From an uncultured Desulfobacteraceae bacterium (GTDB taxonomy: Bacteria > Desulfobacterota > Syntrophobacteria > BM002): DNA of 64,000 bases. The position numbers were made by a program, and so were the translations under genes. This document shows positions 7,686 through 64,000 of the stretch, piece by piece. Position 1 is the stretch's first letter; each line of letters opens with the position of its first letter. The stretch covers positions 1,280-65,279 of the forward strand of contig CAYFXH010000001.1 of the NCBI GenBank assembly GCA_964346905.1. The letters are read 5' to 3'. A model generated the notes under the pieces. That model saw nothing but the letters and a program-made list of their open reading frames with translations. It made no database searches and was not told where the DNA came from.

Positions 7686-7740
7686 GAAAACCCCTCTAAA
7701 CTTTTGATTGCAGTCCTACTTCATAATCTGCGCTGTTAGG

Positions 7741-47698: not shown

Positions 47699-47707
47699 GA
47701 AAGAGCC

Positions 47708-48322: not shown

Positions 48323-48971
48323 GAAACGGAGTCTTTTTCAGAAGGCGGCCATTGCCAGCTTCGTTGGAATCTTGCTCGCCTCGACGCTGATGGCCACCAG
48401 TCTCCTGGCCCACAAGGTGAACGTGTTTGCCTGGGTTGAGGGTGACATAATCTTCGTGGAGGGCTATTTCCCCGGTGGCAAAAACGCGCAGAATTCACTG
48501 GTGGAAGTATTCAACCAGGCTGGAGCCAAACTTTTGGAAGGAAGAACCAACGAAAAGGGCGAGTTCTCCTTCAAGACTCCAGAAAAGACCGATCTTAAGA
48601 TCGTGCTCAGCGCCGGGATGGAGCACAGGAACGACTTCACTGTGTTTGCCAGCGACTTTGCAGAAACAGCGCCATCGCCGGCCGCACCCTTCCGAGAACT
48701 CCAGGAGAGCGAGACACTCTCCGGTGAGGTTGATGAGGACATGCGGCGGCTGGAAGCACTAATCAACCGAACGTTGGACCGCAAGCTTACCCCGGTAATC
48801 AAACTCATCCGCGACTCCAGGAGAGAGGGCCCGACTTTTTCTGAGATCGTTGGAGGTATTGGTTATATTTTCGGACTCGTTGGGGTGGCGCTTTATTTTA
48901 GTAATAGAAAAAAGAAAGAAGGCGGTCAGCGGTCAGCGGTCAGCGGTCAGCAAGATACGGACGGGCAGTAA
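48309..48971 (+). CDS. CbiN/NikL-like accessory membrane protein with periplasmic beta-sandwich-like domain
   Basis: N-terminal TM, HKVNVFAWVEGDIIFVEGYF...EKGEFSFKTPEKTDLKIVL, C-terminal TM; position between cbiM and cbiQ. Confidence 0.45.
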   Translation: MPPGRKRSLFQKAAIASFVGILLASTLMATSLLAHKVNVFAWVEGDIIFVEGYFPGGKNAQNSLVEVFNQAGAKLLEGRTNEKGEFSFKTPEKTDLKIVLSAGMEHRNDFTVFASDFAETAPSPAAPFRELQESETLSGEVDEDMRRLEALINRTLDRKLTPVIKLIRDSRREGPTFSEIVGGIGYIFGLVGVALYFSNRKKKEGGQRSAVSGQQDTDGQ

Positions 48972-49052
48972 TCATTTCCAAGTGCTGCTGTACGAATTAT
49001 CACCTGTTGCGTTTTGATTCTTGCTTATAGCTGACGGCTGATAGCTGATAGC
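48923..49052. repeat. (cggtcag)x4 tandem at the 3 end of 48309..48971 and imperfect inverted copy gctgacggctgatagctgatagc 60 nt downstream
   Basis: Seen directly; encodes GGQRSAVSGQQ tail; arms could pair as a 3 hairpin. Confidence 0.5.
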
Positions 49053-49061
49053 TCAAAAGAA

Positions 49062-49820
49062 ATGCACATAGATAACTTCGCCAGCGGAGATTCCCTTCTC
49101 CATCGTCTCGATCCCCGAGTGAAAATAGTCGTCGCTACGCTGTTTTCTGTGGTGGTTGCCCTCGCAGATAACTACCTTTGCCTGGTGACAGCTGTTGGCG
49201 TAGCTGTCACTTTGCTGCTTGTGGCCCGGCTCTCTTGGAAACAGGTCGCTCTCCGTTTGCTCGCGGTAAACACCTTTATTTTCTTCCTTTGGCTTTTTTT
49301 GCCTTTCACCTACGGAGGTGAAGAACTCTTCAGTATCGGTCCCTTGCACGCTACACGTGAAGGGATTGGTTACGCCCTGCTCATCACGGTAAAGTCGAAT
49401 ACCATTGTGCTCGGACTGATCGCGCTGCTCGCCACCAGTCCCATTATCACCCTTGGCCACGCTATGAGCCATCTTCATGTTCCCGACAAATTGATTCATC
49501 TTTTCTTCTTTACCATCCGGTATCTCCAGGTACTCCATTTGGAGTACGAGCGGTTGCGTGATGCCATGAGGATTCGCGGATTCAAACCTCGCTCCAACCT
49601 GCACACCTACAAAAGCCTAGCTTATCTCATTGGCATGCTCTTGACCAAGAGCTTTGATCGGGCTGAACGCATTAGAAAAGCAATGCTCTGTCGAGGATTT
49701 CACGGAAAATATTATCTCATTAGTCATTTTAAGCTGAAGAGAGGCGACATGGCCATGTTTGTCTTCATGATGCTGATCATAAGTGGGATGGTGGCGTTGC
49801 AATGGCTAACCCCGAAGTAA
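49062..49820 (+). CDS. cbiQ: ECF transporter transmembrane (T) component CbiQ
   Basis: 252 aa multi-TM; conserved ARG-containing C-terminal loop (AMRIRGF...RIRKAMLCRGF). Confidence 0.8.
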   Translation: MHIDNFASGDSLLHRLDPRVKIVVATLFSVVVALADNYLCLVTAVGVAVTLLLVARLSWKQVALRLLAVNTFIFFLWLFLPFTYGGEELFSIGPLHATREGIGYALLITVKSNTIVLGLIALLATSPIITLGHAMSHLHVPDKLIHLFFFTIRYLQVLHLEYERLRDAMRIRGFKPRSNLHTYKSLAYLIGMLLTKSFDRAERIRKAMLCRGFHGKYYLISHFKLKRGDMAMFVFMMLIISGMVALQWLTPK

Positions 49821-50482
49821 TCATAAACGTGAACCGGATCTCCTTTGCGTACCATGGGAACCAAGCCAAACGGCCGGTTCTGGATGATCTCAATTTCCAG
49901 CTAATCCGCGGGGAACGGGTGGGTTTGATCGGCGCCAATGGCAGTGGTAAGACCACGCTTTTTCACCTGATCATGGGGCTCCTGCCACCGACCCGGGGAG
50001 ATATTGAGGTGTTCGGCGAGAAGCGAAGACAGGAAAAAGATTTCAAAGAAGTCAGAGAGAGGATCGGTCTGCTCTTTCAGGATGCCGATGATCAACTTTT
50101 CTGCCCCACGGTGGCCGAAGACGTGGCCTTCGGTCCGCTGAACCTGGGAAAGACCCAAGAGGAAGCAGGAGCTATCACTCAGGATATCCTAACGAGGCTC
50201 GGGCTGGAAGGTTTTCAGAAGCGTTTAACCTATAAGCTTTCAGGAGGGGAGAAACGGCTGGTTGCTTTGGCCACTGTCCTGGCCATGCAACCAGAAGTTC
50301 TCATCCTTGATGAACCCAGTACCGGCCTCGATGAAGATACGATGAAACTACTCGTCCATATACTCAACAACTCTGACCTTACCTACCTCATCGCCTCCCA
50401 CAATACCGATTTTCTGACACAGACCACTGATGTTATCTACCGGCTGGCAAATGGGAAGATAACCAGAACAACTGAGAGCTAA
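49802..50482 (+). CDS. cbiO: ECF transporter ATP-binding (A) component CbiO
   Basis: Walker A GANGSGKTT, signature LSGGEKRL, Walker B ILILDEP. Confidence 0.85.
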   Translation: MANPEVIINVNRISFAYHGNQAKRPVLDDLNFQLIRGERVGLIGANGSGKTTLFHLIMGLLPPTRGDIEVFGEKRRQEKDFKEVRERIGLLFQDADDQLFCPTVAEDVAFGPLNLGKTQEEAGAITQDILTRLGLEGFQKRLTYKLSGGEKRLVALATVLAMQPEVLILDEPSTGLDEDTMKLLVHILNNSDLTYLIASHNTDFLTQTTDVIYRLANGKITRTTES

Positions 50483-50504
50483 TCCTTCGAGACAACAAGA
50501 TGAA

Positions 50505-51089
50505 TCAGTGTCCAGGAGCCTTGCCCAGCAGGGTCTCAAGTTCCTTCTTTTGAGCCTCGAGCTTGGTTTTCAGGGCCCGGGCCTCACTGGCGGTCGCCTC
50601 CATCTCCTTGAAAATCTGCTCCACCTGCTTGTCCGCCGAGTCGTGCTCGCCGGCCAACGGACTGTATGCCATCCGGGCGTTCTCGATAAACCCCTTAACG
50701 TTCTTTTCGAGATCGCCGGCGGTGTCTTCGGTGCGGTGGAGATTTTCGCGCACTAGATGATTGAAGATGTTCTTGAATGCTTTTTCAAGACCCGCTTGGT
50801 CTTGGCGATTAACGGCATCCTCCAGAGGCTTATACAGGTCCATATTGTCGTGGTGGCTCAGGTCGCGGATGGGCTTGGCGATGTCTTTCAGCTCCTCGCC
50901 CAGATGATGCCAGTCAAGCTTGCCCTCTTCTAAATGGTGCTGGAGTTCTTTATAGGTGGCTACAACCTTATTCACCGTCTTCCGTTCTTTGTGATAGGCC
51001 TGGGCGGGTTGTCCCCAGACTGCGAGGCAGAGCGCAAAGACGAGGCCTAGTACTGCCAGCCTTTCCAGTGTAGTAAACTGTTTGCTCAT
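50505..51089 (-). CDS. Hypothetical secreted alpha-helical protein
   Basis: Signal peptide ending AQA; His/Asp/Glu-rich helical repeats; no known domain recognised. Confidence 0.45.
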   Translation of the reverse strand: MSKQFTTLERLAVLGLVFALCLAVWGQPAQAYHKERKTVNKVVATYKELQHHLEEGKLDWHHLGEELKDIAKPIRDLSHHDNMDLYKPLEDAVNRQDQAGLEKAFKNIFNHLVRENLHRTEDTAGDLEKNVKGFIENARMAYSPLAGEHDSADKQVEQIFKEMEATASEARALKTKLEAQKKELETLLGKAPGH

Positions 51090-51651
51090 GGTTTACATCT
51101 CCTCTCGTTGATAAGAGATTCTCTCGTGTAAGCGGTCTTCTCGTGGACCTAGAACTGTTAAATGTTCTTAGTTGAACCGCAACATCTAGAAACTGACCTA
51201 ACCTCTCAAAAAGTATTTTTCTTATAAGGCTACCGCACTTGGATGTCAAGCGGAGCCCTTCTTGCCGTTGGTCAAACGTTCATTCATTTTGGGTGTACTT
51301 TCACCGTGCATCCAAGGGTTGAAGGGGAGAATTATCACAGGACTTTCCTCAAAAATTCAGGTACTGAACAAGACGAACTGGCCTTTTGTGGTGTTTCTTC
51401 TGAGTGACCTGCCCTGTTGAATAGGGTTCCCTTCGGGAAATTCAACAGGGCTGACGGCAGGTCTGAGCCACTTCTTTAGCGAAACCATACTCTGTCAGAA
51501 GAATTGACCTTACTCCAACCATTGTTTATGGTTAGGAACTATCCGGTTGCGAATTCCCTCATTCTTGATGGCTAGCATAACTGCTTGTGTCCAAATTCGC
51601 GCCATATCACTGAAATAGATATCATAAGCAGGGCATCAGGAGATCAGAGCC

Positions 51652-52284
51652 ATGACCCGCCGGACCGTCTGGCTGATTCTTTTTTCTCTTTTTGTTTTTT
51701 TCCTGTGTAGCGGATTTAATCATTTATCCGTACATCCCCTCACCGTTGAGCCAGAAGGTAAAGAGCTACTCAGTGGGGAACCCTTTATCTACAGAATCGA
51801 ACCTGAAACACGAGGCGGCGAGGCCTACAAGCTCGTTTATATTGTGCCTGTCCCCATTGAGGTTTTCTGGAGGTTTAAGACGGATTTTCATGGCGATTTC
51901 CTCGAGACCAACAAGTACGTCAAAGAGCAGAAAGTCATCCGAGAACAACAAAATGTGGTCATCGTTGAGAACAGGTTGTCACATAAACCTGAGACAAGAT
52001 TTAGATGGCGAAATACCCTTCACCCGCAGAAATTCCGTCTGGATTTTGTCCTGGAAAACCCTGAACAGTGCGGCCAAAAATTTCACTACGGCCACATCCA
52101 GCTTGAAGCATCTGGATCTTACACCAAAGTCTCCCATGCGGCGTACTTTGATTTTCTTGGGGCTTCCCTGTGGGCCAACTATCCCTGGCAGGGCGGCATG
52201 TACGTTTTTTTGGACTACATTGCCCGGTGGGAACAAGAGATCATTGTTCAGCTGAAAGATGACTACAAAGAGAAAGAACCATAA
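51652..52284 (+). CDS. Hypothetical secreted protein
   Basis: 210 aa with N-terminal hydrophobic signal; no motif recognised. Confidence 0.45.
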   Translation: MTRRTVWLILFSLFVFFLCSGFNHLSVHPLTVEPEGKELLSGEPFIYRIEPETRGGEAYKLVYIVPVPIEVFWRFKTDFHGDFLETNKYVKEQKVIREQQNVVIVENRLSHKPETRFRWRNTLHPQKFRLDFVLENPEQCGQKFHYGHIQLEASGSYTKVSHAAYFDFLGASLWANYPWQGGMYVFLDYIARWEQEIIVQLKDDYKEKEP

Positions 52285-52625
52285 AGAAACGTTCACTCGA
52301 CGAATATGGAGGTCCCCATGCTTCCCGGCCAACGGCAACCACTTGGCGGAGCTGGCACGGCTAGAACTCTCATCGCAGGTGGGAAGAAGGGCTACGACAG
52401 ATCAGCACCTGCAGGTAAGGTCCCTCATTCAACTCTTCACCTCTTTGAGTAGCTGGATCCCTTCACTTTTGCAGTACCATTGGAGAATTACAACGACCTA
52501 CACTGGCCGGTTGCACCTGCCGCTGATATAGTTGGGCTGAAAGCAACACCAGTGGAAAATCTCCGGTCTGGTTATCCATTACTTCCAAAGGAGCTTCCAG
52601 CAGGGAGGAAAAATGGTGGAAAAAG

Positions 52626-53369
52626 ATGAAAACGCACGGTGCAGTCAGAGGGAAAGTATTCTTGCAACATATTTCGAGTTCTGAGATGCTCAGCGCTCGT
52701 TTGGCCCGCTGGTCTTTCATTCATTCCGTATTGATGGTCCTGGCTACGACCATCTCCCTGGCTGCTGACTCGGTTCACATATTGCTCTTGATTGGTGCTC
52801 TTTCCTTCTGTTTTTTGGTATTCATGGCTCGACCCTTCTGGACCGGGGCAGGTCTCTTCGGGCCAGCCAATAGGGTGACGGCTGTTCGTCTGGCTGGGGT
52901 ACTGGCTCTCCCTTTTCTCAACAACCCCGTCTTCGTTGCCGGATTCGGTCTCGCCCTGCTGTTGCTAGACGGACTGGATGGCTGGCTGGCTCGGCGGCAT
53001 GATCAGGCTTCCGAATTTGGCGAGTATTTCGACAAGGAAACAGACGCTTTCTTTTTGCTGGTCTTGTGCGTCCTTGCCGTTTTCCGCCACCGGTTGGGGT
53101 ATTGGATCTTGATAGCAGGTCTGCTTCGATACGCATTCATACTTATGCTCCACTGCTTCAAATCCACCCTCGTCAAAGAGCGAAAATCCTCGCGAGCCCG
53201 AATTATGTATGGTTTGGTGATGCTAGCGATGCTCGCTGTTTTCCTGCCGTATGCCACCTTCTCCAGACTCCTCGTGGTCGCAGCGACAATGGGATTAATC
53301 CTGTCGTTCGTTTTAGACTTTTTCTTCGCGTTTTCAGGTAGACTACCCTTGCGGAAAAACGGCTCTTGA
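52626..53369 (+). CDS. CDP-alcohol phosphatidyltransferase family protein
   Basis: DGLDGWLARRHDQASEFGEYFDKETDAFF matches the D-G-x2-A-R-x8-G-x3-D-x3-D motif; start probably Met21. Confidence 0.75.
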   Translation: MKTHGAVRGKVFLQHISSSEMLSARLARWSFIHSVLMVLATTISLAADSVHILLLIGALSFCFLVFMARPFWTGAGLFGPANRVTAVRLAGVLALPFLNNPVFVAGFGLALLLLDGLDGWLARRHDQASEFGEYFDKETDAFFLLVLCVLAVFRHRLGYWILIAGLLRYAFILMLHCFKSTLVKERKSSRARIMYGLVMLAMLAVFLPYATFSRLLVVAATMGLILSFVLDFFFAFSGRLPLRKNGS

Positions 53370-54250
53370 ACAAGCGACACCAGTCCAGATTGCACCGTTG
53401 GCATACTCCCACCGAACCTCGAAGAAAAATTTCCCCTCACCCGGTTATGGAGCACACCGCTGGAGTCGTTTCTGTGCTTGAGCGATTTCGCAGATTGAAA
53501 ACCAAAGAGGTCTTCACCTCCGGCGACATCAAAAGGTTTTTTGATGCGTGTGCCCCTACGTATGCGCAGGAGCACGGCGATGTCCAGCGCTTGCTGCACT
53601 ATCGGACCGCTCTCATCAAGGAGGTTGTCCGCCCGGAAAACAACCACGTCGTTTTGGACGTTGGCTGCGGTATTGGTCATCATCTCTTGGCACTGGCCAA
53701 AGACATTGGTCATGGCATTGGCATTGATTTTTCAGAAAAGATGATTGCCCTGGCAAAACGACTCACCCATGATTCGCCTTGGCGAGGGAGGCTAACCTTT
53801 CATCTGGACGACGCAGAAGAATTGTCAACCATACCCGACGCTTCCATCGATATCATTATCTGCATCGGCGCCCTGGAGCATATGCCCAGGAAGCATGCTG
53901 TCCTGTCAAGTGGCTATCGAGTTCTCAAACCGGGTGGCCGCTTTCTTTGTCTAACTCCCAACGGGGAGAATCTTTGGTACCGTTTCCTTGCACCACTTCT
54001 GAGGGTAGACACCAAGCATCTTTCCACCGATACATTTCTGACAGGCCGGGATATGGAGCAACTCCTGGCTGGCTCAGGATACGATCAAATCTCATTTGAA
54101 TATTGGACCTTTATCCCAAAAGGAGACATCCATTGGATGGTGAGCGCTACCCTGCAGGTGCTGGATACGGTAGGCACGCTTCTCCACATGGGCAGCCTCA
54201 GGGGAGGGCTTTTCATTACCGGCCGCAAACCCCGGGGCAAAGATTGGTGA
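53366..54250 (+). CDS. Class I SAM-dependent methyltransferase
   Basis: Motif I VLDVGCGIGHH; start uncertain (TTG 53366 or Met28 at 53447). Confidence 0.7.
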   Translation: MNKRHQSRLHRWHTPTEPRRKISPHPVMEHTAGVVSVLERFRRLKTKEVFTSGDIKRFFDACAPTYAQEHGDVQRLLHYRTALIKEVVRPENNHVVLDVGCGIGHHLLALAKDIGHGIGIDFSEKMIALAKRLTHDSPWRGRLTFHLDDAEELSTIPDASIDIIICIGALEHMPRKHAVLSSGYRVLKPGGRFLCLTPNGENLWYRFLAPLLRVDTKHLSTDTFLTGRDMEQLLAGSGYDQISFEYWTFIPKGDIHWMVSATLQVLDTVGTLLHMGSLRGGLFITGRKPRGKDW

Positions 54251-54290
54251 GATCGTTTGGGTGAGTTTCTCGGCGCATGCCCCTCTATAG

Positions 54291-55202
54291 TTACGGTCGC
54301 CCGAGCACATCTAACTGATGGGCGATATAAAAAAGCCGCCCTTCTTCAATGTGGCGGTGGCGTGTTGTCAGCCATTGTTCCAGTTGGTGGACCTCAAGCT
54401 CGGGACACCCCCTCAGTCCATCCTCCATGAGGTGCAAGATATGGTGCAGGAAATATGCTTCATCTGCTGGATAGGGGGGATAGACCACCCAGTCCGAACT
54501 GTGGGCGGCCAGGATTGCGGTCCCCTGCAGCCAGAGGGTTTCAAGCAGAATTCGCCCCGTCTGGCTATGTCCCGCAGGCCGCCCCTGGAGCACCCGCTCG
54601 TTCATGCACCGGTGGTAGCAAGCCTCCACTCTGGCATCAAAATCTGGATCCACAGTTGGCCGCAAAATGGTGCCGCCGTCGAAAACCAGGGTGAAGTAGA
54701 AGAGTCCTCCTGCATGCAGACAGGAGAGGAGGGTGGGCAGGGTGGTATCCAGATCTACCAGGTCCATGAAGGCGTGTGCAATGAGGAGATCCCAGGACCT
54801 CCCCGGCTGCTTTGCCAGGTGGAAGATATCCGTGGCGATGAATTCCAGTGAGATCTCTTGCCTGTCCCCTGCTAGGATGAGTCGGTCCTGTTGTGCTCGC
54901 TTTGCCTGCCAGCCGCGGGACTCGGCCCAGATTGGCAAGCGCACGGCTGCCCTGGCCAAGAGAGAAGAGTCTACGTCCACGGCTGTGTAGTTTAAATCAC
55001 GATGGAGGCCCCATTCCACCAACCGTTCTACCATGGTCCCAACTCCTGCGCCCACCTCCAGCACCTGGAGGGGTTGGTTGGGGGAAAAACTCTTCAATTC
55101 CTCGAGAAGTCGCTCCCAGCACCGTCGGCTCAGGGCGCGGTCATCCACAGTGCGCTTGGCCTCCAGATAGCGGCTGAAACTATAGTGTTCGGGTTGTGCC
55201 AT
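54291..55202 (-). CDS. Class I SAM-dependent methyltransferase
   Basis: Motif I VLEVGAGVGTM; last gene of the minus-strand operon 60401->54291. Confidence 0.7.
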   Translation of the reverse strand: MAQPEHYSFSRYLEAKRTVDDRALSRRCWERLLEELKSFSPNQPLQVLEVGAGVGTMVERLVEWGLHRDLNYTAVDVDSSLLARAAVRLPIWAESRGWQAKRAQQDRLILAGDRQEISLEFIATDIFHLAKQPGRSWDLLIAHAFMDLVDLDTTLPTLLSCLHAGGLFYFTLVFDGGTILRPTVDPDFDARVEACYHRCMNERVLQGRPAGHSQTGRILLETLWLQGTAILAAHSSDWVVYPPYPADEAYFLHHILHLMEDGLRGCPELEVHQLEQWLTTRHRHIEEGRLFYIAHQLDVLGRP

Positions 55203-55204
55203 GT

Positions 55205-56299
55205 TCAGTGGCTGCTGCTGGAAATGGCTTCCACAAGAAAATCACGGATTGTGGAAGCTGTTTGCTCCCAGCTGGGAAATGTGTCAAAACGTCGTCGTGC
55301 TACAAGGCTCAAGCGGAGCAGTTCGTCCCGATTGTTGAGCAATCGCTGCAACAGGTGGACGAGTCCGCTCAGGTCTCCCGGCTCGAAGAGATAACCGTTC
55401 TCGCCGTGGCTGACAATCTCTTCTGCTCCACCGCGGCGGCATGCCAGGGAAGGAAGCCCGTAGGCCATTCCCTCCAGGTAGACGATACCGAAGCCTTCGT
55501 AGGAGAAAGGCATGGCAATGACGTCGCTCTCCTTGAGAAGATGCGTTAGCTCACCGTCAGTGAGTGATCCCAGTAGCCGCACCTTCCCATCAACACCCAG
55601 GGTTGTGATTCGTTGCCGAACCGTAGCTACGTAACCCACGTCTACCTCCAAGCTGCCAACCACAGACAACTGCCAGGACTCGTGCCGGAGCGAAGCCAGG
55701 GCCGTGAGCAGATCGTCCAACCCCTTTCGAGAGATCACATTACCCACAAAGGCGAGGTTTAAGGGTCTGTCCCGCCGGACGCGATGGACGATCTCCCCCT
55801 TCTCCATAGCCGGTTCCAGACGATTCCCGCCAGGGTGAGCAACGACCCCGAACCGGGGACCACCGCACAATTCCTCCACCGAGCGACGGGTAGCCTTGCT
55901 GTTGAAGACAAATCCATCCACCGAGGTGAGATAGGAGCTTTCCACAGCCTGGTAGAGGATCCGGGCTGGAAAAGACCACTGCTCCCGGCAACGGAGGTGG
56001 TGGACGATGGAAACCACGGGGTAGGACACCCGGGGACGTAGTCTTCTGTTAAGCAGGAACAGAGAGGGGTGATTCAGCTCATCCTGGAGAAGCACGTCCA
56101 GCTGGGCCCGGGCCAAACGTTTCAGCCACTGGGCAGAGAGATTGTGCGTCAAATGTCTGGCATAAGAGTGTAAGGGCATGGAGAAGACTTCTACGTCGTC
56201 CCCACGTTTCCTGAGGTGCTCCACCAGCTTCCGATCGTAGAGATACCCTCCGCTCACGGACTGCAGAGATCCATAAATTACGATGCCAACTCGCATCAA
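55205..56299 (-). CDS. GT4-family glycosyltransferase
   Basis: 364 aa; C-terminal EGFGIVYLEGMAYGLPSLACRRGGAEEIV...NGYLFEPGD (E-x7-E GT-B motif). Confidence 0.75.
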   Translation of the reverse strand: MMRVGIVIYGSLQSVSGGYLYDRKLVEHLRKRGDDVEVFSMPLHSYARHLTHNLSAQWLKRLARAQLDVLLQDELNHPSLFLLNRRLRPRVSYPVVSIVHHLRCREQWSFPARILYQAVESSYLTSVDGFVFNSKATRRSVEELCGGPRFGVVAHPGGNRLEPAMEKGEIVHRVRRDRPLNLAFVGNVISRKGLDDLLTALASLRHESWQLSVVGSLEVDVGYVATVRQRITTLGVDGKVRLLGSLTDGELTHLLKESDVIAMPFSYEGFGIVYLEGMAYGLPSLACRRGGAEEIVSHGENGYLFEPGDLSGLVHLLQRLLNNRDELLRLSLVARRRFDTFPSWEQTASTIRDFLVEAISSSSH

Positions 56300-56673
56300 A
56301 ACGTCTCGGTATAACTAGCCCAGGCGATTCCGCTTTCCCAAACTCTTACTCTGATGCTGCTCAGGTGGTTTGAGTTCAAACGCTCCAGCAGAGTGTGGCA
56401 CCAGATACGGGAGAAGTGCTCGATGCTGGGATTAAGGCCAGCAAATTCCGGCTGATCATTGAGGGTCTTGCCGGCAAAATAGGCAACCAGATCTTCCATG
56501 GCCTCTTCGATGAGGGAGATATCAACAAGGTAGCCGAACTTGTCCAGGGTCGCTCCTGAGAGCAGCACCTCCACCGTGTAGTGGTGGCTGTGAGGCAGGT
56601 TCTCCTCGCCCCAGTCTCCCCCCACCAGGTAATGGCTCGCCTCGAACTCGCGTCTCACCGCTACCTCATACAT
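56296..56673 (-). CDS. 6-pyruvoyl-tetrahydropterin synthase-like (PTPS/QueD-fold) protein
   Basis: 125 aa; EFEASHYL ... PHSHHYTVEV zinc-binding His pattern of the PTPS fold; lacks the QueD Cys. Confidence 0.55.
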   Translation of the reverse strand: MYEVAVRREFEASHYLVGGDWGEENLPHSHHYTVEVLLSGATLDKFGYLVDISLIEEAMEDLVAYFAGKTLNDQPEFAGLNPSIEHFSRIWCHTLLERLNSNHLSSIRVRVWESGIAWASYTETF

Positions 56674-56783
56674 TCCATCTCCTCCGCGTTACTCATTGTG
56701 GCGTGGTACAGAATGGGGACTCTTGCAGTAATTTCCAACGGACAATGACTGCGAGCCCACACTGTTGCGTCTACACCACCATG

Positions 56784-57809
56784 CTAGCTGTCATAGGTGA
56801 GTATTACCTGAAGATCTTGGGACGGATCCTGGTGCAGAAGGTTGTATGCCTCGTCGGCTCGCTCCAAGGGAAAACGGCGGGTAATAAATCGAGTGGGGCC
56901 AATTTCCTGCAGCCACCGCCAGGCCACCTCCAGACGGCGAGGTTTGCTCCAGCGGCCCGTGAGCTCTGGGGCCACGGTACTCACCTGACTGCTGATCACC
57001 CTCACTCGGTTCCGGTGAAATGTACCCCCAAGGTCTACCGCGGCGCGCTGCTTCCCATACCAAGACCCCAGCACAATGCGCGCCCCAAAGCCGCAGGCCC
57101 CAAGGGCCATATCCAGTGCAGCCGGATTGCCACTCAGCTCGTAGACCAGATCCGCCCCACCCTTTGTTTCCAGTGCATCGGTCAGCCGAGCAAGGGTATC
57201 CGGGCCAGCTGGATCAAAACTCTCCGCCGCCCCCAGTTCGACGGAGATCTCCCGACGGCGGGGATAACCGTCCAGGGTAAGGAGACAATCCAGGGGAAAA
57301 CGAGATAACAGAGCCGTGCTGAGAAGTCCTACGATCCCCTGGCCGAGCACAACTACCGCCTCGCCGATCATCGGGCGGCCGTCCATAACCAGATTCACCG
57401 CAGTCTCCACGTTTGGCAGGAAGACCGCCTCCTCATCGCTTACTCCCTCAGGCAGGGGAAAAAGCTCATGGGTATAGGCAACAAAATGACTCTGGTGGGG
57501 TTGGAAAGAAAAGACCAGACGACCCAACCAGGAACCATCAACCTGCGGGCCTACATTGTACACCCGCCCAACTGAACTGTACCCGTATTTCAGGGGAAAG
57601 GTAAGGTTGCTCCCGGACAGAGCTGGTATGTACGGGTCACCGGCCATGTGCTCGGGAGCCTGACCGCGGTAAATCAACAACTCGCTGCCGGCGCTGATGC
57701 CGGAGATTAGCGTCTCCACCCCCACCTGCCCCGGCTCTGGTTCTGAAATTTTTTCTTCGCGCACCTCCACTCGCCCGGGTGCCAGGAAATAGAGGGCCCG
57801 ACGGATCAT
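56784..57809 (-). CDS. Zinc-binding/MDR-family dehydrogenase
   Basis: Start Met10 of ORF-track ORF (GGGGGAG RBS, ATGA overlap with upstream stop); GQGIVGLL NAD(P)-binding motif. Confidence 0.65.
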   Translation of the reverse strand: MIRRALYFLAPGRVEVREEKISEPEPGQVGVETLISGISAGSELLIYRGQAPEHMAGDPYIPALSGSNLTFPLKYGYSSVGRVYNVGPQVDGSWLGRLVFSFQPHQSHFVAYTHELFPLPEGVSDEEAVFLPNVETAVNLVMDGRPMIGEAVVVLGQGIVGLLSTALLSRFPLDCLLTLDGYPRRREISVELGAAESFDPAGPDTLARLTDALETKGGADLVYELSGNPAALDMALGACGFGARIVLGSWYGKQRAAVDLGGTFHRNRVRVISSQVSTVAPELTGRWSKPRRLEVAWRWLQEIGPTRFITRRFPLERADEAYNLLHQDPSQDLQVILTYDS

Positions 57810-58549
57810 TGCTCCCCCCAGAAAGGCTGGCCCCACACGATGAGGTCCTGCCCAAATGCAGCGTAGCGCACCTTGGATAACCGAGGCAAAAGGGCAGGCT
57901 CACGGCTCAGGCGGGAGAAGGCACGCACCCCGCCGACTATCAGGGGGGCAATGGTGATGATCACTTGGTCCACAAGGCGAGCCGTGATGAAGCTCGTCAA
58001 CACCCGGCCGCCGCCCTCAACCATGAGGCTGTTGATACCCATCTGCCCAAGTTTGTTTAACAACGGCTCTAGGGTAACCCACCCTCGCTCGTTTTTCGGA
58101 AAACGAAAGATCTGGGCTCCTTTGGTCTCCAGCTTCTGTTGCCGCGAGTCCTTGGCCTCCCGGCTGGTGGCGATCCAAACTCGTCTGCTGTTCTGGTTCA
58201 GCAGTTTACTGCTGAGAGGTGTACGTAGCTTGCTGTCAAGCACTACCGGCTGTGGATTCTCACCAGGGACGAGTCGCACGGTAAGCGCGGGGTTATCCGC
58301 CAATACAGTGCGGATGCCCACCAGAATGGAGTCGTGGAAAGCTCGAAGCTGATGGGTAAATATCATGGATTCCTGGCCACTGAGAGGTAGAGGGCTCATG
58401 GGATTACAGGCGATGGAGCCATCCACACTCTGAGCGTAAGAGAGGGTACAGAAGGGACGTCCTTGGCGGTATCGGTGCTCAGCCGCTCGCTCCAGCCTAG
58501 CCTTGATATCACTCAAAAAGGTTTCAGACCTCTCCACTGACATGGGCAA
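57806..58549 (-). CDS. RibD C-terminal domain / dihydrofolate-reductase-like reductase
   Basis: 247 aa; TLSYAQSVDGSIA N-terminal signature and EGGGRVLTSF near the C-terminus typical of RibD-C/YwjB family. Confidence 0.65.
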   Translation of the reverse strand: MPMSVERSETFLSDIKARLERAAEHRYRQGRPFCTLSYAQSVDGSIACNPMSPLPLSGQESMIFTHQLRAFHDSILVGIRTVLADNPALTVRLVPGENPQPVVLDSKLRTPLSSKLLNQNSRRVWIATSREAKDSRQQKLETKGAQIFRFPKNERGWVTLEPLLNKLGQMGINSLMVEGGGRVLTSFITARLVDQVIITIAPLIVGGVRAFSRLSREPALLPRLSKVRYAAFGQDLIVWGQPFWGEQ

Positions 58550-58700
58550 AACCCCGGGGTCAACCTGGCGGTTTGCTGCCAGGCGTGATCAGCCGTGATT
58601 CTTCGAATACCTGATATTTTCCCTTGCCAGATCGATTCCATGAGAGCGATTGCTGGCGACAACACTTCATTAATTCAGAAAAACAACCACAGTGTCAAGT

Positions 58701-60401
58701 TTATTTGAGGCTCGAAGGGACCGAGACACCGGCCACATCCTTTGCCGCTTCTTTTCTGGGTGGTGTGCTGAAGTCTTCAAGGAAAGCATAGAGGAAGGTT
58801 TCCATGCCCAGGTGCGGCGGCGGCTGCTTTGGAATCAGTCCGGGCGTAAAGCCGCGTGCCGCGAAAGGCTTCAGCAAATCTCGGTTCCGGCTGATGACAT
58901 GAATAGGTACTGACCAAGGCCGGTTTTCGCCCGTAATTTGGACGTTAGGCTGATGGTCGCCCAGGATGATGATGAGACCGTCTTCTTGGATGTACTGTTC
59001 AAGATAACCTCCGAGAACTTGAAACTCGTAGTTGATGGAGGCCATAAAAGCCTCGCCGGCATTACTCAGGTCAGGCCAGACAATGGGATAGGTGATGGTT
59101 TCCTTCTCGTGGTAAATGGCGCCGTCACCTATCTGCGACCAGTCCTCCAGGTAGGGTGGTTGCAGGTGAAACGGTGCGTGGCTGGTTATCAGCACGTATT
59201 CGATAAACAACGGTTGGCTATGGTTTCGAATTTCATGGCGATGGATGTAGTCAAGCACGTACTGATCGGGCATGGGTGACCAGCCGTAACGCGGTCCTTT
59301 ATAATCGAAATTCCAGGCGTAGTATTTTTTCTTGTAGCCAAAGAAGGAGCCCTCAGGCCAGGGCCAGGTGGTACCAGGCATGGCCGAAATGGTTCTGTAG
59401 CCAGCCTCATTGAAGTAGAGGGCAATGGTCTTGAAATTTGAGGTTACCAGCAGATTGTATAGCAGTTGGCTATCCAGATTCACTCCGCTGGCAAGGGTGG
59501 CGTGCGCTAACCAGGAAGATCCACCATACGTTGGCGAGGTCAGGAAATTAGAGTAAACCGCGAAACCCTTGGCCCCCAGGCTCTTTTCCAACTCTTCAAA
59601 ACCGGTTGCAATCATAGAAAAATGGTTGGAATCAGCAAATACTGTGTATCCGTATGATTCAACGAAAATCAGGTGGACATTTGCCCCGTGGAGCCTGTCC
59701 AGGGAAGCCGGGGTGTCCTTGGCTTTGGCCGCAGCTACCCTCAGCGCCTCCAGGTACTCCGTCCTATAACCCTGAACGTGCAAGATGAAGTCCACCTCTT
59801 CAACAACTCGGTGAAAGAAACCCTTGGCAAATATGGTTACCCGATCATTTGGACGATTGTGGAACAGGGAAAGTGATGCGAGCACAGCGACGAGTCCAAG
59901 AAAAATGTACCGCTGGCTTGCAAGTCTAAAATAGCAATGGACTGTCTTAAGAGACCGCCAAATACCCCAACTTGCCGCTGCCAAAATGGTTATGGCCAGA
60001 CCACCATAAGCAATCACCGCTTCAAGCGAGAGGGTGTGGTAAAGAAGATGCACCAGGTCAGGCACATACCGCGAGTCTATATATACATTGAAAGTACGAT
60101 TGAAATACATCGGCACGAGCACGTCACCCGTGCGAAAAAACCGAAAGAAGAGCAAGAGTACCGTGAGAGCGAGGTACACCGCGCGATGAAACTCCATGCC
60201 CAACCCCACTGCTATGCACAGGGCCGAGAGAAGCACAGCGATTTCCGGCGAAGGAAGTAACGGAGCCAAAAGATTCGGCTCTTTGGCAGGAAAGTTCAGA
60301 TTGAGTAAAGCATTGAGGAATGCCCAGGCGAGCACAAAACCCATGGTAGGCTTCAGCATCTGAGCGTAAGCTCTGACGCCATCAGGCAAAGGAGACTGCA
60401 T
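58701..60401 (-). CDS. Membrane-anchored alkaline-phosphatase-superfamily enzyme (LtaS/sulfatase-like phospho-transferase/hydrolase)
   Basis: 566 aa; ~5 N-terminal TM helices then soluble domain with HLIFVESYGYT metal-site-like segment; assignment by architecture. Confidence 0.5.
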   Translation of the reverse strand: MQSPLPDGVRAYAQMLKPTMGFVLAWAFLNALLNLNFPAKEPNLLAPLLPSPEIAVLLSALCIAVGLGMEFHRAVYLALTVLLLFFRFFRTGDVLVPMYFNRTFNVYIDSRYVPDLVHLLYHTLSLEAVIAYGGLAITILAAASWGIWRSLKTVHCYFRLASQRYIFLGLVAVLASLSLFHNRPNDRVTIFAKGFFHRVVEEVDFILHVQGYRTEYLEALRVAAAKAKDTPASLDRLHGANVHLIFVESYGYTVFADSNHFSMIATGFEELEKSLGAKGFAVYSNFLTSPTYGGSSWLAHATLASGVNLDSQLLYNLLVTSNFKTIALYFNEAGYRTISAMPGTTWPWPEGSFFGYKKKYYAWNFDYKGPRYGWSPMPDQYVLDYIHRHEIRNHSQPLFIEYVLITSHAPFHLQPPYLEDWSQIGDGAIYHEKETITYPIVWPDLSNAGEAFMASINYEFQVLGGYLEQYIQEDGLIIILGDHQPNVQITGENRPWSVPIHVISRNRDLLKPFAARGFTPGLIPKQPPPHLGMETFLYAFLEDFSTPPRKEAAKDVAGVSVPSSLK

Positions 60402-61041
60402 CTGTAGCTCCTCGGCAAAGCACTTCTAAGCTCCGGATAGAGACGGTGATGGAGATCTTAGGCATAGATTGTATCCTGGGGTGGCGGGGTTGGCTAAGGT
60501 CACATTCTGGCTCCATACGTGATAGTTAACCTCGCGGGTATCTTCTGAAACAGCAAACCTTGAAACATTCCTGCCACCTGCTGGTCTAAACCTAATCATT
60601 ATCATTGTTAAGCAGTATTTGCTTGATGTGCAATACCCTAGAGGGCATACGTTTCTTGGCCTAGCCAATGCTACCGGCCTCGTTTAGGAATGATGGTTAC
60701 CATCACCTTTACCCTGATCCTTGTGTTTTTAGAACGCTGGCAGCGGTCTTTATCGGAGCAAGGTAATGGCATGAAGTCTGTCTTTCCTGCTTGACATCCT
60801 CATTCCAGCTTTGCTATTCTTACCATTCTTTCAAAACTATCCTAATCATTCTAATTGTTTACAATTTAGTCGACCTCAAGATTAACTTAACTGCCCAACA
60901 ACGTGAGAGACATTTGTCTTTGTCGCGGGTGAGCATCTTGCCTTTCGGGGCAACATTGGATATTTTTATATGCCTTTCTATTTTATGGACCTATGATGTT
61001 CACTCCCATTCTAGTAATCAATACAGGGAGTATCTTATAAA

Positions 61042-63981
61042 GTGGACCGGAGAACCTTCCTGAAGATTGCCGGTGTAGGAAGTCTTTCGTTTGCCGCCAG
61101 CTGTACCTCTCAGCCTGCCAGAACCCTGTATTCTTTTGTCCAGGCGCCGGATGACATGGTAATCGGCCAGCCGACCTGGTACGCCTCCACCTGCAGAGAG
61201 TGTCCGGCCGGCTGTGGAGTCTTGGCCAAAAACAGAGAGGGTAGGATCATCAAGGTTGAAGGTAATCCCCTTCACCCCATCAACCGGGGGACACTGTGCA
61301 TACGGGGTCAGGCCGCCCTCCAAGGTATATACAACCCGGACAGGATCAAGACACCTCTGTTGAGGGAGGGCGACGTCTACCGTCCATTAACCTATCCGGA
61401 GGCGGAAGCCCTTCTTACCACCAAGGCTAATACTGCAGCGAAAAATGGTCGGGATAGGGTTCGAATGCTTACAGAGGTTGTGGGTAAGAGCCTCATAGGC
61501 CTCATGAAGGAATCTTCGGCTAAGTGGCATTCTAAAGAACCTCTGGTTTTTGAGCCCTTTGGTTATGAGTCTTTAAAGACAGCAAATGAGAAAGTATTTG
61601 GGCTTGATGTGTTACCTTCCTACAGGATGGAACAGGCCGACCTCTTGATCTCTTTCGGGGCGGACTTCTTGGAAACCTGGCTCTCCCCGGTGGAATACGG
61701 TTGGAAATTCAAAGAGATGCACGCGCTCAAAGGGCAAAATAAGGGTCTCTTCTTCCATATCAGCCCCTACATGTCCATGACCGGCGCAAATGCAGATCTC
61801 TGGCTCTCTTGCAATCCTGACACCGAATATGCTGTCGCCCTGGGCCTCTTACGGGAAAGTGTGCGGAGTGGCAAAGGCAGGGCTCTTCCCAAAAAAATTC
61901 GGGATGCTATTGAGAGAGTCGCCTCCCCCTACACCAGTGATAAAGTCGCGGAGCTATCAGGGCTGTCAGCTGAACACTTCCATAAGCTTGCCACCCACCT
62001 CAAGAGTGCACAGAAACCTCTCATCCTCGGTACCACCACCGGTGCAACCGGAACTCATACCTTACAGGCCAACATAGCTGCCAACCTCTTAAACCTGGTT
62101 TTCGATCCTGCTTTGACTCTTTTTGACTTCATCAATAGACACCGGGTGGAAGAGGCGGCGAGAAGATCAGAGGTTCTCGACTTCTTCAGCCAGCTGGAAA
62201 CTGATTCGGTGGAACTCCTGCTTCTCAACAACGTGAACCCATCCTTTGCCCTGCCTCCAGAAAGCAAAGTTAGGGAGTCCCTGAAAAGGGATTCTCTCTT
62301 TGTTGTGAGTTTTAGCAATTTCATTGATGAAACCACCGAACTGGCTGATCTCATTCTGCCGGTACAGCTCCCTCTGGAAACCTGGGACGAATATAGTGGA
62401 AAAACCGGATTCGTCTCCACCATACAACCCACCATGGGAAGTCTGACCGGAGCACCGAACCTTGGGGACGTCCTGCTTCGCGCTTCTTTCGGTGAAAAGC
62501 GGCCTTACAAGAATTTCCAGGCCTACCTGTTTGCTCAACTCACGTTCAGCCGTGTCATCCGGGAGAAGCAAGATTGGCTCCAGGCCTTGCAGAACGGGGG
62601 AAATTTTAAAGTTAGTTCTAAGAAGCGCTCAACCCCAGTGACTTTATCAGATAGATTTGAGTCCGGTTTTACCGCTCCTTACCCTCCCAGGGCGACCGAA
62701 CTCGTTCTGTTTGCCGCCCCTTCTATTCGCTTCTTTGACGGCAGGGGGGCAAACAAATCCTGGCTTTGTGAGATTCCCGACCCATTAACCAAGATTACCT
62801 GGCAGACCCCGGTGCTGGTGCACCCTGAAACCCTCGCCACTAGAGGTTTGCGCCAGGGGGACATTGTCAAGATCCAATCCAGGTGGGGCGAACTGGAGGC
62901 ACCTGTCTATGAAACAGCAGGGGTGAGGTCTGGTGTTGCAGTCATGCCAATCGGCCAGGGCCATACCGGTTACGGGCGTTATGCCAGCGACACCGGACTC
63001 AACCCTATTACCATCCTCCCGCCAGAATTGGAACCGGATTCTGGCGCCCCCTATTTTACGACGGGACCCATCGCCCTCGAAAAAACGGGTCGGTCCATGA
63101 AGCTGGCCCACACAGACGGTAGCCGAATCCAACACGGGAGAAAGATTGCCCTATCAGTTAGTTTGAACGAGCTTGGCCAAGAGCAACCGCACAAACGGCA
63201 GGGGCTGGGCATGTGGGAGTTTCCCTTCACCCTACCGCTACCTGAGGGCTATGACCGTAGAAGGGATATTTATCCTCCTCATGATCACAAGGATTATCGC
63301 TGGGCTATGGTGGTTGATATGGACAGGTGCATCGGTTGCGCAGCCTGCGCCGCCGCCTGTTATGCGGAAAACAACGTGGGCGTGGTGGGAGTGAAGAGGG
63401 TGCTTGAAGGTAGGGAAATGGCATGGCTTCAGATCCAACGTTACGAGGATGAAGCTAATCCCGAAAAAATCACTTTCCTCCCCATGCTCTGCCAGCACTG
63501 TGACAACGCCCCGTGCGAATCGGTTTGCCCGGTCTATGCTCCTTATCATACCCAGGAGGGCTTGAACGCCCAGATTTACAACCGCTGCGTGGGAACTCGC
63601 TTTTGCTCCCAGGACTGTACCTACAAGGTGCGACGCTTCAACTGGTTTGACTATGAATGGCCCAAGCCCCTTGACTTGCAACTGAACCCGGATGTTACCG
63701 TGCGCAGCAAGGGGGTTATGGAAAAGTGCTCCTTCTGTCACCAGCGGATCAAGGATGCCAATGATAAGGCCAAAAACGAGGGAAGAAAGATTCTGGACGG
63801 CGAGGTTCAACCCGCCTGCTTGCAGACCTGCCCCACCGGGGTGTTCACCTTCGGCAATCTGATGGATAAAGAGAGCAAGGTCTGGAAAAAAGTCCACGAC
63901 CAGCGAGCTTACCAGGTAATGGGATACCTGAACACCAAACCTGCAGTGATCTACCTGAAGAAAGTTGTCCAGGAGATATGA
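61042..63981 (+). CDS. Tat-exported molybdopterin-oxidoreductase-like domain fused to a 4Fe-4S (NrfC/PsrB-type) domain; ActB-like subunit of an alternative-complex-III-type or related quinone-interacting complex
   Basis: 979 aa; twin-arginine signal RRTFLKIAGVGSL; N-terminal CRECPAGCGV cluster; C-terminal CIGCAACAAAC, CQHCDNAPCESVCP, CSFCHQRIK ferredoxin motifs; GTG start. Confidence 0.6.
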   Translation: MDRRTFLKIAGVGSLSFAASCTSQPARTLYSFVQAPDDMVIGQPTWYASTCRECPAGCGVLAKNREGRIIKVEGNPLHPINRGTLCIRGQAALQGIYNPDRIKTPLLREGDVYRPLTYPEAEALLTTKANTAAKNGRDRVRMLTEVVGKSLIGLMKESSAKWHSKEPLVFEPFGYESLKTANEKVFGLDVLPSYRMEQADLLISFGADFLETWLSPVEYGWKFKEMHALKGQNKGLFFHISPYMSMTGANADLWLSCNPDTEYAVALGLLRESVRSGKGRALPKKIRDAIERVASPYTSDKVAELSGLSAEHFHKLATHLKSAQKPLILGTTTGATGTHTLQANIAANLLNLVFDPALTLFDFINRHRVEEAARRSEVLDFFSQLETDSVELLLLNNVNPSFALPPESKVRESLKRDSLFVVSFSNFIDETTELADLILPVQLPLETWDEYSGKTGFVSTIQPTMGSLTGAPNLGDVLLRASFGEKRPYKNFQAYLFAQLTFSRVIREKQDWLQALQNGGNFKVSSKKRSTPVTLSDRFESGFTAPYPPRATELVLFAAPSIRFFDGRGANKSWLCEIPDPLTKITWQTPVLVHPETLATRGLRQGDIVKIQSRWGELEAPVYETAGVRSGVAVMPIGQGHTGYGRYASDTGLNPITILPPELEPDSGAPYFTTGPIALEKTGRSMKLAHTDGSRIQHGRKIALSVSLNELGQEQPHKRQGLGMWEFPFTLPLPEGYDRRRDIYPPHDHKDYRWAMVVDMDRCIGCAACAAACYAENNVGVVGVKRVLEGREMAWLQIQRYEDEANPEKITFLPMLCQHCDNAPCESVCPVYAPYHTQEGLNAQIYNRCVGTRFCSQDCTYKVRRFNWFDYEWPKPLDLQLNPDVTVRSKGVMEKCSFCHQRIKDANDKAKNEGRKILDGEVQPACLQTCPTGVFTFGNLMDKESKVWKKVHDQRAYQVMGYLNTKPAVIYLKKVVQEI

Positions 63982-64000
63982 GCGAGACGCCTGAACTGAC

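Follow-up and report, generated by a model that had tools for sequence, protein, structure and literature searches.

A RibD_C, T-fold and glycosyltransferase gene cassette shared by bacteria and archaea, and its possible link to phospholipid head groups

A single residue sets the substrate of the reductase in the early riboflavin pathway: lysine in bacteria (K152 of EcRibD, K151 of BsRibG) goes with the deaminated compound, while threonine in fungi (Thr35 of yeast RIB7) and asparagine in archaea go with the 2-amino compound 2,5-diamino-6-ribosylamino-pyrimidinone-5′-phosphate (DAROPP) (PMC3631187). The T-fold enzymes of COG0720 carry the published signatures CxxxHGH, CxxxxxHGH, ExxHGH and FGPAQ (PMC5041015, PMC5445326). 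Both protein families meet in the locus described here, which spans positions 52626–60401 of a 64,000 nt stretch of DNA from an uncultured Desulfobacteraceae bacterium (the window). A RibD_C-type reductase, an MDR-superfamily dehydrogenase, a PTPS-like T-fold protein, a GT4 glycosyltransferase and a class I SAM methyltransferase (MT1) are encoded there one after the other and are called the core in this work. A CDP-alcohol phosphatidyltransferase, a second methyltransferase (MT2) and a sulfatase-like membrane protein are encoded next to them.

The grouping of the core genes is far beyond chance, as their order recurs across phyla and in both prokaryotic domains, and we consider it nearly certain that they act as one functional unit. 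We are fairly confident that the pathway is entered via GTP and a 2-amino-ribitylaminopyrimidine. In our main reading, to which we assign a probability of about 0.45, the unit would make a GTP-derived, glycosylated and methylated compound that ends as a phospholipid head group. The literature yielded no description of this cluster and no paper naming its product, and no curated family describes the system.

Conservation of the gene unit and its layout in the window

The window proteins were mapped onto the 80 best MT1 loci and two metagenome contigs (82 loci), and those that extend 4.5 kb or more upstream of MT1 were considered informative (n = 63). The order RibD_C-MDR-PTPS-GT4-MT1 was found on one strand in 47 of the 63 informative loci, and the GT4 gene adjoined the PTPS-like gene in 57. 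The first-pass annotation of this DNA had proposed a common pathway rather than scattered housekeeping genes, a proposal that it tied to conserved co-localisation. Such co-localisation is clearly present, in several phyla and both domains, and the proposal of one functional unit stands.

That unrelated housekeeping genes (RibD, QueD, a lipopolysaccharide glycosyltransferase and PgsA) became neighbours by chance is refuted by this synteny and is scarcely credible. Public annotation speaks for it, with the labels "6-carboxytetrahydropterin synthase", including a queuosine GO term, and "phosphatidylglycerophosphate synthase" for the PTPS-like protein and the transferase, respectively. However, besides the order kept across phyla and domains, the early steps are joined by gene fusions, none of the eight proteins attains any NCBIfam equivalog cutoff, the Cys and the Asp-His dyad of QueD are absent, the bacterial Lys is absent from the reductase, and the cluster neighbourhoods hold no queC/E/F, folE, sepiapterin-reductase or rib context. 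These public labels are probably wrong.

Hosts of the core belong to the Anaerolineae and other Chloroflexota, the Desulfomonilaceae and Syntrophobacterales (Thermodesulfobacteriota), the Binatia, the Pyrinomonadaceae (Acidobacteriota) and the Entotheonellaceae, and among archaea to a Bathyarchaeota and a euryarchaeal metagenome-assembled genome (MAG). In a scan with one genome per species, MT1 relatives occurred in at least 458 species-level genomes, with Anaerolineae and syntrophic or sulfate-reducing Thermodesulfobacteriota prominent among them. The loci closest to the window are those of a Thermodesulfobacteriota MAG (L004) and of a "Proteobacteria" MAG (L003). A protein search of annotated plasmids located an MDR-PTPS-GT4-MT1 block on megaplasmids of cultured haloarchaea, namely Haloarcula marismortui (pNG700), Natronorubrum bangense, Halomicrococcus, Haladaptatus and Halobellus, with proteins 33–53% identical to those of the window. 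The patchy distribution across phyla suggests horizontal transfer; the cassette is widespread and horizontally mobile, and the window holds one copy of it. Within the window, G+C content peaks in the core, at 54001–58000 (0.575–0.579 versus 0.43–0.54 elsewhere), which is compatible with horizontal acquisition.

A mobile cluster of this kind might alternatively make a diffusible secondary metabolite or antimetabolite from the product of GTP cyclohydrolase II (GCH II), as in the case of toxoflavin, with the membrane proteins serving export or self-protection. The haloarchaeal megaplasmids, a plasmid location in Streptomyces, the patchy distribution, the G+C content of the core (about 0.50 being usual in the window) and the ABC-2 and MFS transporters near some loci fit such a product. 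We consider it improbable, as an identity of about 50% across phyla and the number of carrier species would be unusual for a niche antibiotic, none of the regulators, resistance genes or tailoring diversity that usually mark such clusters was seen, and a CDP-alcohol phosphatidyltransferase is no export or resistance device.

All eight open reading frames (ORFs) first annotated in this region are present, with the following positions in the window:

58701–60401, minus strand: sulfatase/alkaline-phosphatase superfamily membrane protein (PF00884)
57806–58549, minus strand: RibD_C-type pyrimidine reductase (PF01872, TIGR00227), probable ATG start at 58543
56784–57836, minus strand: MDR-superfamily dehydrogenase (PF00107, ADH_zinc_N), probable ATG start at 57809
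56296–56673, minus strand: PTPS/QueD-fold (T-fold) protein (PF01242)
55205–56299, minus strand: GT4 (GT-B) glycosyltransferase (PF00534, Glycos_transf_1), ATG at 56296
54291–55202, minus strand: MT1, class I SAM methyltransferase (weak generic Pfam and NCBIfam matches)
52626–53369, plus strand: CDP-alcohol phosphatidyltransferase of the "type B" subfamily (PF01066), NCBI start at M21, position 52686
53366–54250, plus strand: MT2, UbiE-like class I methyltransferase (Methyltransf_11/25/31)

Profile scans against Pfam and NCBIfam uphold the initial family assignments of these ORFs, while their arrangement had to be corrected. Six minus-strand genes had been described as coupled by ATGA overlaps. 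One true ATGA overlap exists, at the RibD_C/MDR junction, provided that the MDR gene starts at ATG 57809; the PTPS/GT4 junction reads TGATG with 1 nt shared (TTGA instead if the TTG start is used), a spacer of 2 nt separates GT4 from MT1, and gaps of about 107 nt and about 150 nt lie between the MDR and PTPS-like genes and between the sulfatase-like and RibD_C genes, respectively. The plus-strand pair, earlier called divergent, is convergent with the minus-strand genes, tail to tail (54250 against 54291). The sulfatase-like gene, counted at first as an operon member, is a lineage-specific accessory outside the widely conserved unit.

GTP cyclohydrolase II, the reductase, the dehydrogenase and the T-fold protein

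Neighbours of the core loci were clustered and then scanned against Pfam. GCH II was encoded by a separate gene directly upstream of RibD_C in 16 loci, was fused to RibD_C in 13 and was fused to the MDR dehydrogenase in one archaeal locus. In the latter (L069, euryarchaeal MAG JAEZKS010000247, 6117–8075) the GCH II-MDR fusion is one ORF of 652 aa, and the locus lacks RibD_C. The Tyr of canonical GCH II (LRAYNL) is kept in all cluster copies, separate or fused.

The RibD_C reductase of the window matches PF01872 with 159 bits and TIGR00227 with 168.6 bits (cutoff 150.15), has no deaminase domain and finds its best solved relatives among stand-alone riboflavin reductases. At the specificity position it has Ser (CTLSYAQSVDG). 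The cluster reductases, with the motif VTL[STAC]YAQSLDG, have Ser in 37, Thr in 8, Ala in 5 and Cys in 2 cases, thus one of these four in 52 of 55 homologues, and Lys in none. An identity as the bacterial RibD/RibG riboflavin reductase was rejected, since neither the specificity Lys nor a fused deaminase domain is present. As the specificity residue is never Lys and the deaminase domain is missing, the cassette is predicted to turn DAROPP into 2,5-diamino-6-ribitylamino-4(3H)-pyrimidinone 5′-phosphate, a compound that the bacterial riboflavin route never forms. The absence of RibD_C from the haloarchaeal clusters fits with archaea, whose own riboflavin route includes the reduction of the non-deaminated 2-amino substrate. 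The earlier idea of pteridine-type chemistry combined with glycosyl and methyl transfer is thus retained with a different entry, through GCH II and a riboflavin-type pyrimidine reductase in place of GTP cyclohydrolase I and the "DHFR-like reductase" first suggested.

For the MDR dehydrogenase the best NCBIfam match is BchC (TIGR01202), with 62.7 bits against a cutoff of 291. Its catalytic zinc ligands are lost, with Ser instead of Cys in 54 and Tyr instead of His in 55 of 56 sequences, while GQGxVG is kept. Ser and Tyr at these positions presumably resemble the situation in BchC, a zinc-free secondary-alcohol dehydrogenase, and the protein can be called BchC-like, not BchC.

The PTPS fold proposed at first sight was confirmed for the fourth protein (PF01242, 92 bits versus a cutoff of 22.4, residues 4–123), whereas the catalytic Cys and the Asp-His dyad of PTPS and QueD are absent. 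Residues H14, H28, H30, E24, E85, E113 and W118 are invariant in the family (n = 51). The zinc-binding triad H14, H28 and H30 is found in 50–51 of the 51 homologues and aligns with the zinc histidines of QueD; Glu24 stands, in 50 of the 51, at the position of Cys27 of QueD. Arg/Asp-type residues occupy the positions of the dyad. The NPSxE motif and the C-terminal Glu, which anchors the 2-amino-4-oxo-pyrimidine ring in T-fold enzymes, are kept in the 51 homologues. The subfamily signature reads GGDWGxENxxHSHHY, and 302 representatives (E ≤ 1e-10, 50%-identity library) are nearly all stand-alone proteins of about 125 aa. No informative fusion was found among the longer members P0104, P0109 and P0257 or the 150 best PTPS representatives.

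Known identities were compared with this pattern and rejected. QueD (PTPS-I) and PTPS-II do not fit because of the missing Cys and dyad and a QueD equivalog score of 46 bits against a cutoff of 89. In PTPS-III the Glu of ExxHGH is one position closer to the His than in E-N-x-x-H-S-H, and no fol/mpt genes lie near the clusters. PTPS-IV is represented by the closest solved protein, SCO6650 of Streptomyces coelicolor (PDB 3D7J, E 1.2e-9), which together with its S. fungicidicus orthologue has FGPAQ and lacks the third His, whereas the window protein has WGEEN and the family WG[AP]EN. Judged by these residue patterns, the PTPS-like protein is a distinct T-fold subfamily.

The resemblance to SCO6650 bears on a further explanation, in which the cluster feeds the synthesis of a known cofactor, for instance F420/FO or a pterin of the methanopterin or folate kind. 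One review assigns PTPS-IV to F420 synthesis, without data, and SCO6650 bears the PTPS-IV motif FGPAQ; moreover, genes of the PPOX/F420 type occur close to the loci of Streptomyces and Haloarcula, and Streptomyces, haloarchaea and Chloroflexota make F420. Nevertheless, the known routes to F420, folate and methanopterin do without a GT4, a class I methyltransferase or a CDP-alcohol phosphatidyltransferase, the window protein lacks FGPAQ and keeps the zinc site, unlike SCO6650, and no cofG/H, cofC/D/E or fol genes were found in the annotated or Pfam-scanned neighbourhoods. A cofactor precursor is therefore quite improbable.

A distant form of the cluster is present on plasmid p1 of S. fungicidicus. 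It encodes a CDP-alcohol transferase, an alcohol dehydrogenase of the zinc-binding type, a PTPS homologue, a GT4 and a class I methyltransferase, and further on a creatininase-family protein and GCH II. Identities to the window proteins are 36% for MDR, 29% for PTPS, 26% for GT4 and 35% for the CDP-alcohol transferase; GCH II is 52% identical to the cluster type, and no homology to MT1 could be detected for the methyltransferase (E 0.04). The PTPS homologue is essentially identical to SCO6650. This SCO6650-SCO6655-type locus thus shares the architecture of the cluster, yet its PTPS homologue (FGPAQ...HGA, PTPS-IV type) retains neither the third zinc His nor the Glu, Met replaces the Tyr in its GCH II, and RibD_C is lacking. 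Met at that position (SCO6655 type) reportedly stops GCH II at the formylated product FAPy, a finding attributed to Spoonamore et al. in 2006; the creatininase-family neighbour, seen also in H. marismortui, would then be the deformylase of this product. We know of no reported product of such a locus. A second Streptomyces plasmid match to PTPS (L094) was set aside as an unrelated paralogue context.

In the H. marismortui type strain the PTPS-like gene is probably a frameshifted pseudogene: it matches in two pieces at 7555–7916 of the pNG700 locus (L086, NC_006395), with no annotated coding sequence. The creatininase-family gene and a gene for a GFO/IDH-aldo-keto-reductase fusion of 656 aa lie beside this cluster. 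In an Anaerolinea MAG (L012, 7641–8543), an extra methyltransferase gene of the mycolic acid cyclopropane synthetase (CMAS) family is inserted between the MDR and PTPS-like genes.

Glycosyl, methyl and head-group transfer

GT4 matches PF00534 with 111 bits and reaches no NCBIfam equivalog. Its best solved relatives, matched in the donor domain only, are MshA (1.4e-19), Alr3699, BshA and PimB. Chains of the tetrahydrobiopterin glucosyltransferase (BGluT) match residues 175–322 only, with E-values of 7e-11 to 2e-9, weaker than MshA, Alr3699 and the BshA type. In an Entotheonellia MAG (L002, 3383–4788 and 11195–11791), genes for an MT2 homologue, a PIG-L-type de-N-acetylase and a GNAT acetyltransferase flank the core; these are hints that the GT4 sugar may be an N-acetylhexosamine in some lineages.

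Searches for MT1 homologues reached at least 3772 clusters of 90% identity from the window sequence (E ≤ 1e-5) and at least 6562 from an archaeal one (E ≤ 1e-10). Members of this family are about 50% identical across phyla, and alignment A1 contains many invariant acidic residues. An AF2 model (pLDDT 84) compared with the PDB by Foldseek found generic class I methyltransferases at best (TM 0.56); phosphoethanolamine N-methyltransferases, at a TM of about 0.4, were not counted as evidence of relationship.

The CDP-alcohol phosphatidyltransferase of the window matches PF01066 with 54.5 bits (cutoff 22) and contains the motif DGx2ARx8Gx3Dx3D (DGWLARRHDQASEFGEYFDKETD). PgsA, PssA, PIP synthase and archaetidylinositol-phosphate (AIP) synthase were rejected as identities because the best NCBIfam score was 24.7 bits against cutoffs of 107–304. 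Its "type B" subfamily has 128 proteins. A CDP-OH_P_transf gene was present in the examined stretch of 20 of the 82 loci, which had been fetched via MT1; we estimate that a PF01066 gene lies within 20 kb of a random gene in a few percent of cases.

The transferase gene stands beside the core in about six independent arrangements or lineages. In the Anaerolineae loci L012 and L026 genes for an ABC ATPase, an ABC-2 permease, the transferase, a flippase-like LPG_synthase_TM protein, DUF7475, GCH II, RibD_C, MDR, PTPS, GT4 and MT1 are co-directional and tightly spaced, consistent with one operon. The order transferase-GCH II-RibD_C-MDR, also co-directional with the core and tightly spaced, was found in L029, whereas the transferase gene is divergent from RibD_C in two Syntrophobacterales-type loci. 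Natronorubrum (L089) has DUF7475, transferase and MDR on one strand, and in H. marismortui a DUF7475-transferase pair adjoins the core. At 42% identity, the transferase of H. marismortui is closer to the Anaerolineae type than to the Natronorubrum enzyme; the transferase thus accompanies the cassette from one domain to the other. Genes for DUF7475, LPG_synthase_TM and ABC-2 transporters are the other partners of the core. This recurrence of the transferase, often with DUF7475, the flippase-like protein and an ABC-2 exporter alongside, speaks for a lipid head group.

Relatives of the window transferase were also traced independently of the core, with three contexts inspected. They adjoin the core and MT2 in L083 and L084, the latter also with a flippase-like gene and GT4; such relatives lie beside the core in L003 and L004 as well. 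MT2 scores about 80 bits with Methyltransf_11/25/31. As its homologues have only 250–260 aa, the real start is probably downstream of the ORF start. The MT2 gene directly follows that of the transferase in the window, L003, L004, L083 and L084, and is a neighbour of the core in L002 and L017. We read the transferase and MT2 as functionally tied to the core. The phospho-headgroup transfer that the first-pass annotation had considered is therefore strengthened: in several lineages, synteny ties a dedicated CDP-alcohol phosphatidyltransferase to the core whichever of the two is taken as the starting point.

Among related loci, the sulfatase-like gene occurs only in L003, L004 and L085. Its product has a hydrophobic N-terminal third and matches PF00884 at residues 315–487 (37 bits, cutoff 25). 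The metal and nucleophile motifs are kept: VESYG, GGxSWLA, SHA and GDHQP are conserved in four homologues including that of Salisaeta, and the sole conserved hydroxyl residue is the Ser in GGxSW, not a Thr. A formylglycine sulfatase was rejected, as the four-sequence alignment contains no C/S-x-P-x-R signature. The PDB yielded no sequence match, with the single sequence at E ≤ 0.1 or with the four-sequence profile at E ≤ 1, and a single-sequence AF2 model was unusable (pLDDT 36.6). Of the initial label "LtaS/sulfatase-like enzyme", the PF00884 domain behind membrane segments remains, while a relative among the solved LtaS/EptA structures was not obtained; "LtaS-like" is plausible as an analogy, not as membership. 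In the cultured Salisaeta longa (L085, GCA_000419585.1, 10001–12438), the transferase and sulfatase-like genes share one base (10687), and no RibD_C, MDR or PTPS genes lie nearby. This module can thus exist on its own, and we read the sulfatase-like protein as tied to the transferase, not to the core.

We infer the chemical steps after the reductase and the lipid end point as follows. GCH II, in this organism encoded outside the 64-kb window, would make DAROPP, which the cluster reductase, of the fungal/archaeal 2-amino-specific type, would reduce to 2,5-diamino-6-ribitylamino-pyrimidinone-5′-phosphate. The zinc-free, BchC-like dehydrogenase could then oxidise a side-chain hydroxyl, most plausibly the ribityl 2′-OH, to an Amadori-type ketone. 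This open-chain ketone would be that of the GTP cyclohydrolase I reaction and would close with the 5-amino group to a 7,8-dihydroneopterin-phosphate-like pterin. The zinc-dependent T-fold enzyme, with Glu in place of the catalytic Cys, may remodel the side chain in a PTPS-like reaction, after which GT4 would add a sugar and MT1, plus MT2 in some lineages, would methylate. The dedicated CDP-alcohol phosphatidyltransferase would join the polyol or glycoside to CDP-diacylglycerol (CDP-archaeol in archaea), yielding a phospholipid head group. The flippase-like protein or the ABC-2 system may export the product in other lineages, while here the membrane-bound sulfatase-superfamily transferase may pass it on. 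HAD-family phosphatase genes, which directly follow the last gene of the cluster in L036 (8183–8944) and L051 (10970–11635), there after MT1, and in L040 (5038–5694), after GT4, are candidates for the removal of the 5′-phosphate.

In our judgement, the odds of a phospholipid head group as the end product, or as the basis of it, are roughly even. A broader version is doubtful: a phospholipid class common to bacteria and archaea, with a GTP-built head group (a pterin-like or ribitylaminopyrimidine polyol, glycosylated and methylated), a route to the pterin ring independent of GTP cyclohydrolase I as a by-product, and LtaS-like transfer to an envelope acceptor in the window lineage.

Several observations weigh against the proposed lipid. 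About three quarters of the loci have no CDP-alcohol transferase gene within 10 kb, and the window itself has no GCH II, DUF7475 or flippase-like gene. RibD_C is absent, unexplained, from the bacterial loci L021, L042 and L055 and from Streptomyces. The likeness of GT4 to solved enzymes is restricted to the donor-binding domain, and the MT1 fold search points to no substrate class. The transferase and sulfatase-like pair of Salisaeta longa occurs without the core, so that the alcohol of the transferase need not come from the core pathway. To our knowledge, no GTP-derived lipid head group has been described.

In the main rival, the core makes a soluble methylated glycoside of a pterin or a ribitylaminopyrimidine, comparable to cyanopterin, tepidopterin or solfapterin, and the lipid-type genes nearby serve a separate envelope function. 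Methylated pterin glycosides (sugar-pterins) are known natural products. The five core enzymes are all predicted to be cytosolic and would suffice for such a product, the frequent lack of the lipid enzyme and the Salisaeta pair would be expected, and GT4 is detectably similar to the tetrahydrobiopterin glucosyltransferase. Yet GT4 is nearer to MshA, BshA and PimB, the transferase stands beside the core in about six arrangements and lineages, in places co-directional and tightly spaced, against a chance expectation of a few percent, and the cluster-specific transferase subfamilies follow the core from one domain to the other. We consider the soluble glycoside unlikely.

A different lipid was considered as well. 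The cluster might make aminopentanetetrol (APT), the N-methylated head group of APT lipids, by release of the ribitylamine side chain of the ribitylaminopyrimidine. In formula, aminopentanetetrol agrees with a 1-amino-1-deoxypentitol, of which ribitylamine is an example. One or two methyltransferases and the CDP-alcohol transferase would match the methylation of these lipids, and no APT biosynthesis gene was named in the literature found. APT lipids are mono-, di- or tri-N-methylated and sometimes O-methylated (PMC6423904). However, the core gene GT4 would have no role in APT, the MDR step would be left unexplained, and the reported APT taxa (Methanomicrobiales, Aquificales, Thermodesulfobacterium) are absent among the named matches listed. 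APT was not detected in any of nine Halobacteria strains (PMC6423904), and APT of Streptomyces was not met in the literature, although neither point was specifically searched. This origin is very improbable, and a GTP-derived, glycosylated and methylated phospholipid head group remains our preferred reading.

Flanking genes and comparison with known systems

Just upstream of the locus, at 46922–50482 on the plus strand, a cobalt/nickel uptake operon of the ECF type encodes a DUF4198 protein, CbiM, a 220-aa protein, CbiQ and an ABC ATPase. Between it and the cluster lie ORFs of 194 aa (50505–51089, minus strand) and 210 aa (51652–52284, plus strand) with no Pfam match. On the other side, at 61042–63981 (plus strand), a polypeptide of 979 aa combines a molybdopterin oxidoreductase (Fe4S4, Molybdopterin, Molydop_binding) with a 4Fe-4S dicluster domain. 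An Rfam scan of 50000–64000 at E ≤ 1 found no riboswitch and no other RNA, and promoter and terminator counts did not differ usefully from those in shuffled sequence. PADLOC reported no defence system, only generic methyltransferase-domain matches to mad2.

If the proposed pathway is true, the riboflavin pathway has a new branch point and the T-fold enzymes have a new catalytic type, based on zinc plus Glu; a new lipid head group, useful as a biomarker for uncultured sediment and soil lineages, may be a further outcome. Streptomyces has a distant form of the cluster; there, the structure of SCO6650 and the activity of SCO6655 have lacked a pathway since 2006–2008. Despite its size of at least 6562 clusters, the MT1 family has no curated name. 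Presence in cultured haloarchaea and Streptomyces makes the question testable by genetics and lipidomics.

Compared with the early riboflavin pathway of archaea and fungi (GCH II/III, then a Rib7-type reductase), the cluster has in common GCH II and a RibD_C reductase with a small residue instead of Lys, and its motif VTL[S/T]YAQSLDG obeys the fungal rule set by Thr35 of yeast RIB7. Unlike that pathway, it has no deaminase, lumazine synthase, RibB or riboflavin synthase, its genes are embedded among those of a T-fold enzyme, GT4 and a methyltransferase, and its hosts are mostly bacteria with a RibD of their own. With the COG0720 enzymes (PTPS-II, QueD/PTPS-I, PTPS-III and PTPS-IV) the PTPS-like protein shares a T-fold of about 125 aa, the zinc His triad, NP(S/T)xE and the C-terminal Glu, while its motif ENxxHSH differs from every published signature and it has no Asp-His dyad.

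The pterin glycoside pathways (BGluT; cyanopterin, tepidopterin, solfapterin) likewise pair a PTPS-family enzyme with a GT-B glycosyltransferase; they differ from the cluster in starting from GTP cyclohydrolase I and a Cys-type PTPS and in having no lipid enzyme. The sulfatase-like protein has N-terminal membrane segments, a PF00884 domain and conserved Glu, Ser, His and Asp-His motifs in common with transferases of the LtaS/EptA/OpgB type, yet it matches no solved member in sequence, even by profile. Finally, phosphatidylinositol mannosides, GlcN-(archaetidyl)inositol and MshA-type polyol-phosphate glycosylation share the combination of PF01066 and GT4. In these head-group pathways, sometimes with a PIG-L deacetylase (compare L002) or a HAD phosphatase, a polyol phosphate is attached and then glycosylated. 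Here, by contrast, the transferase of the window scores below the PIP and AIP cutoffs, and the polyol of the cluster would derive from GTP, not from inositol phosphate synthase.

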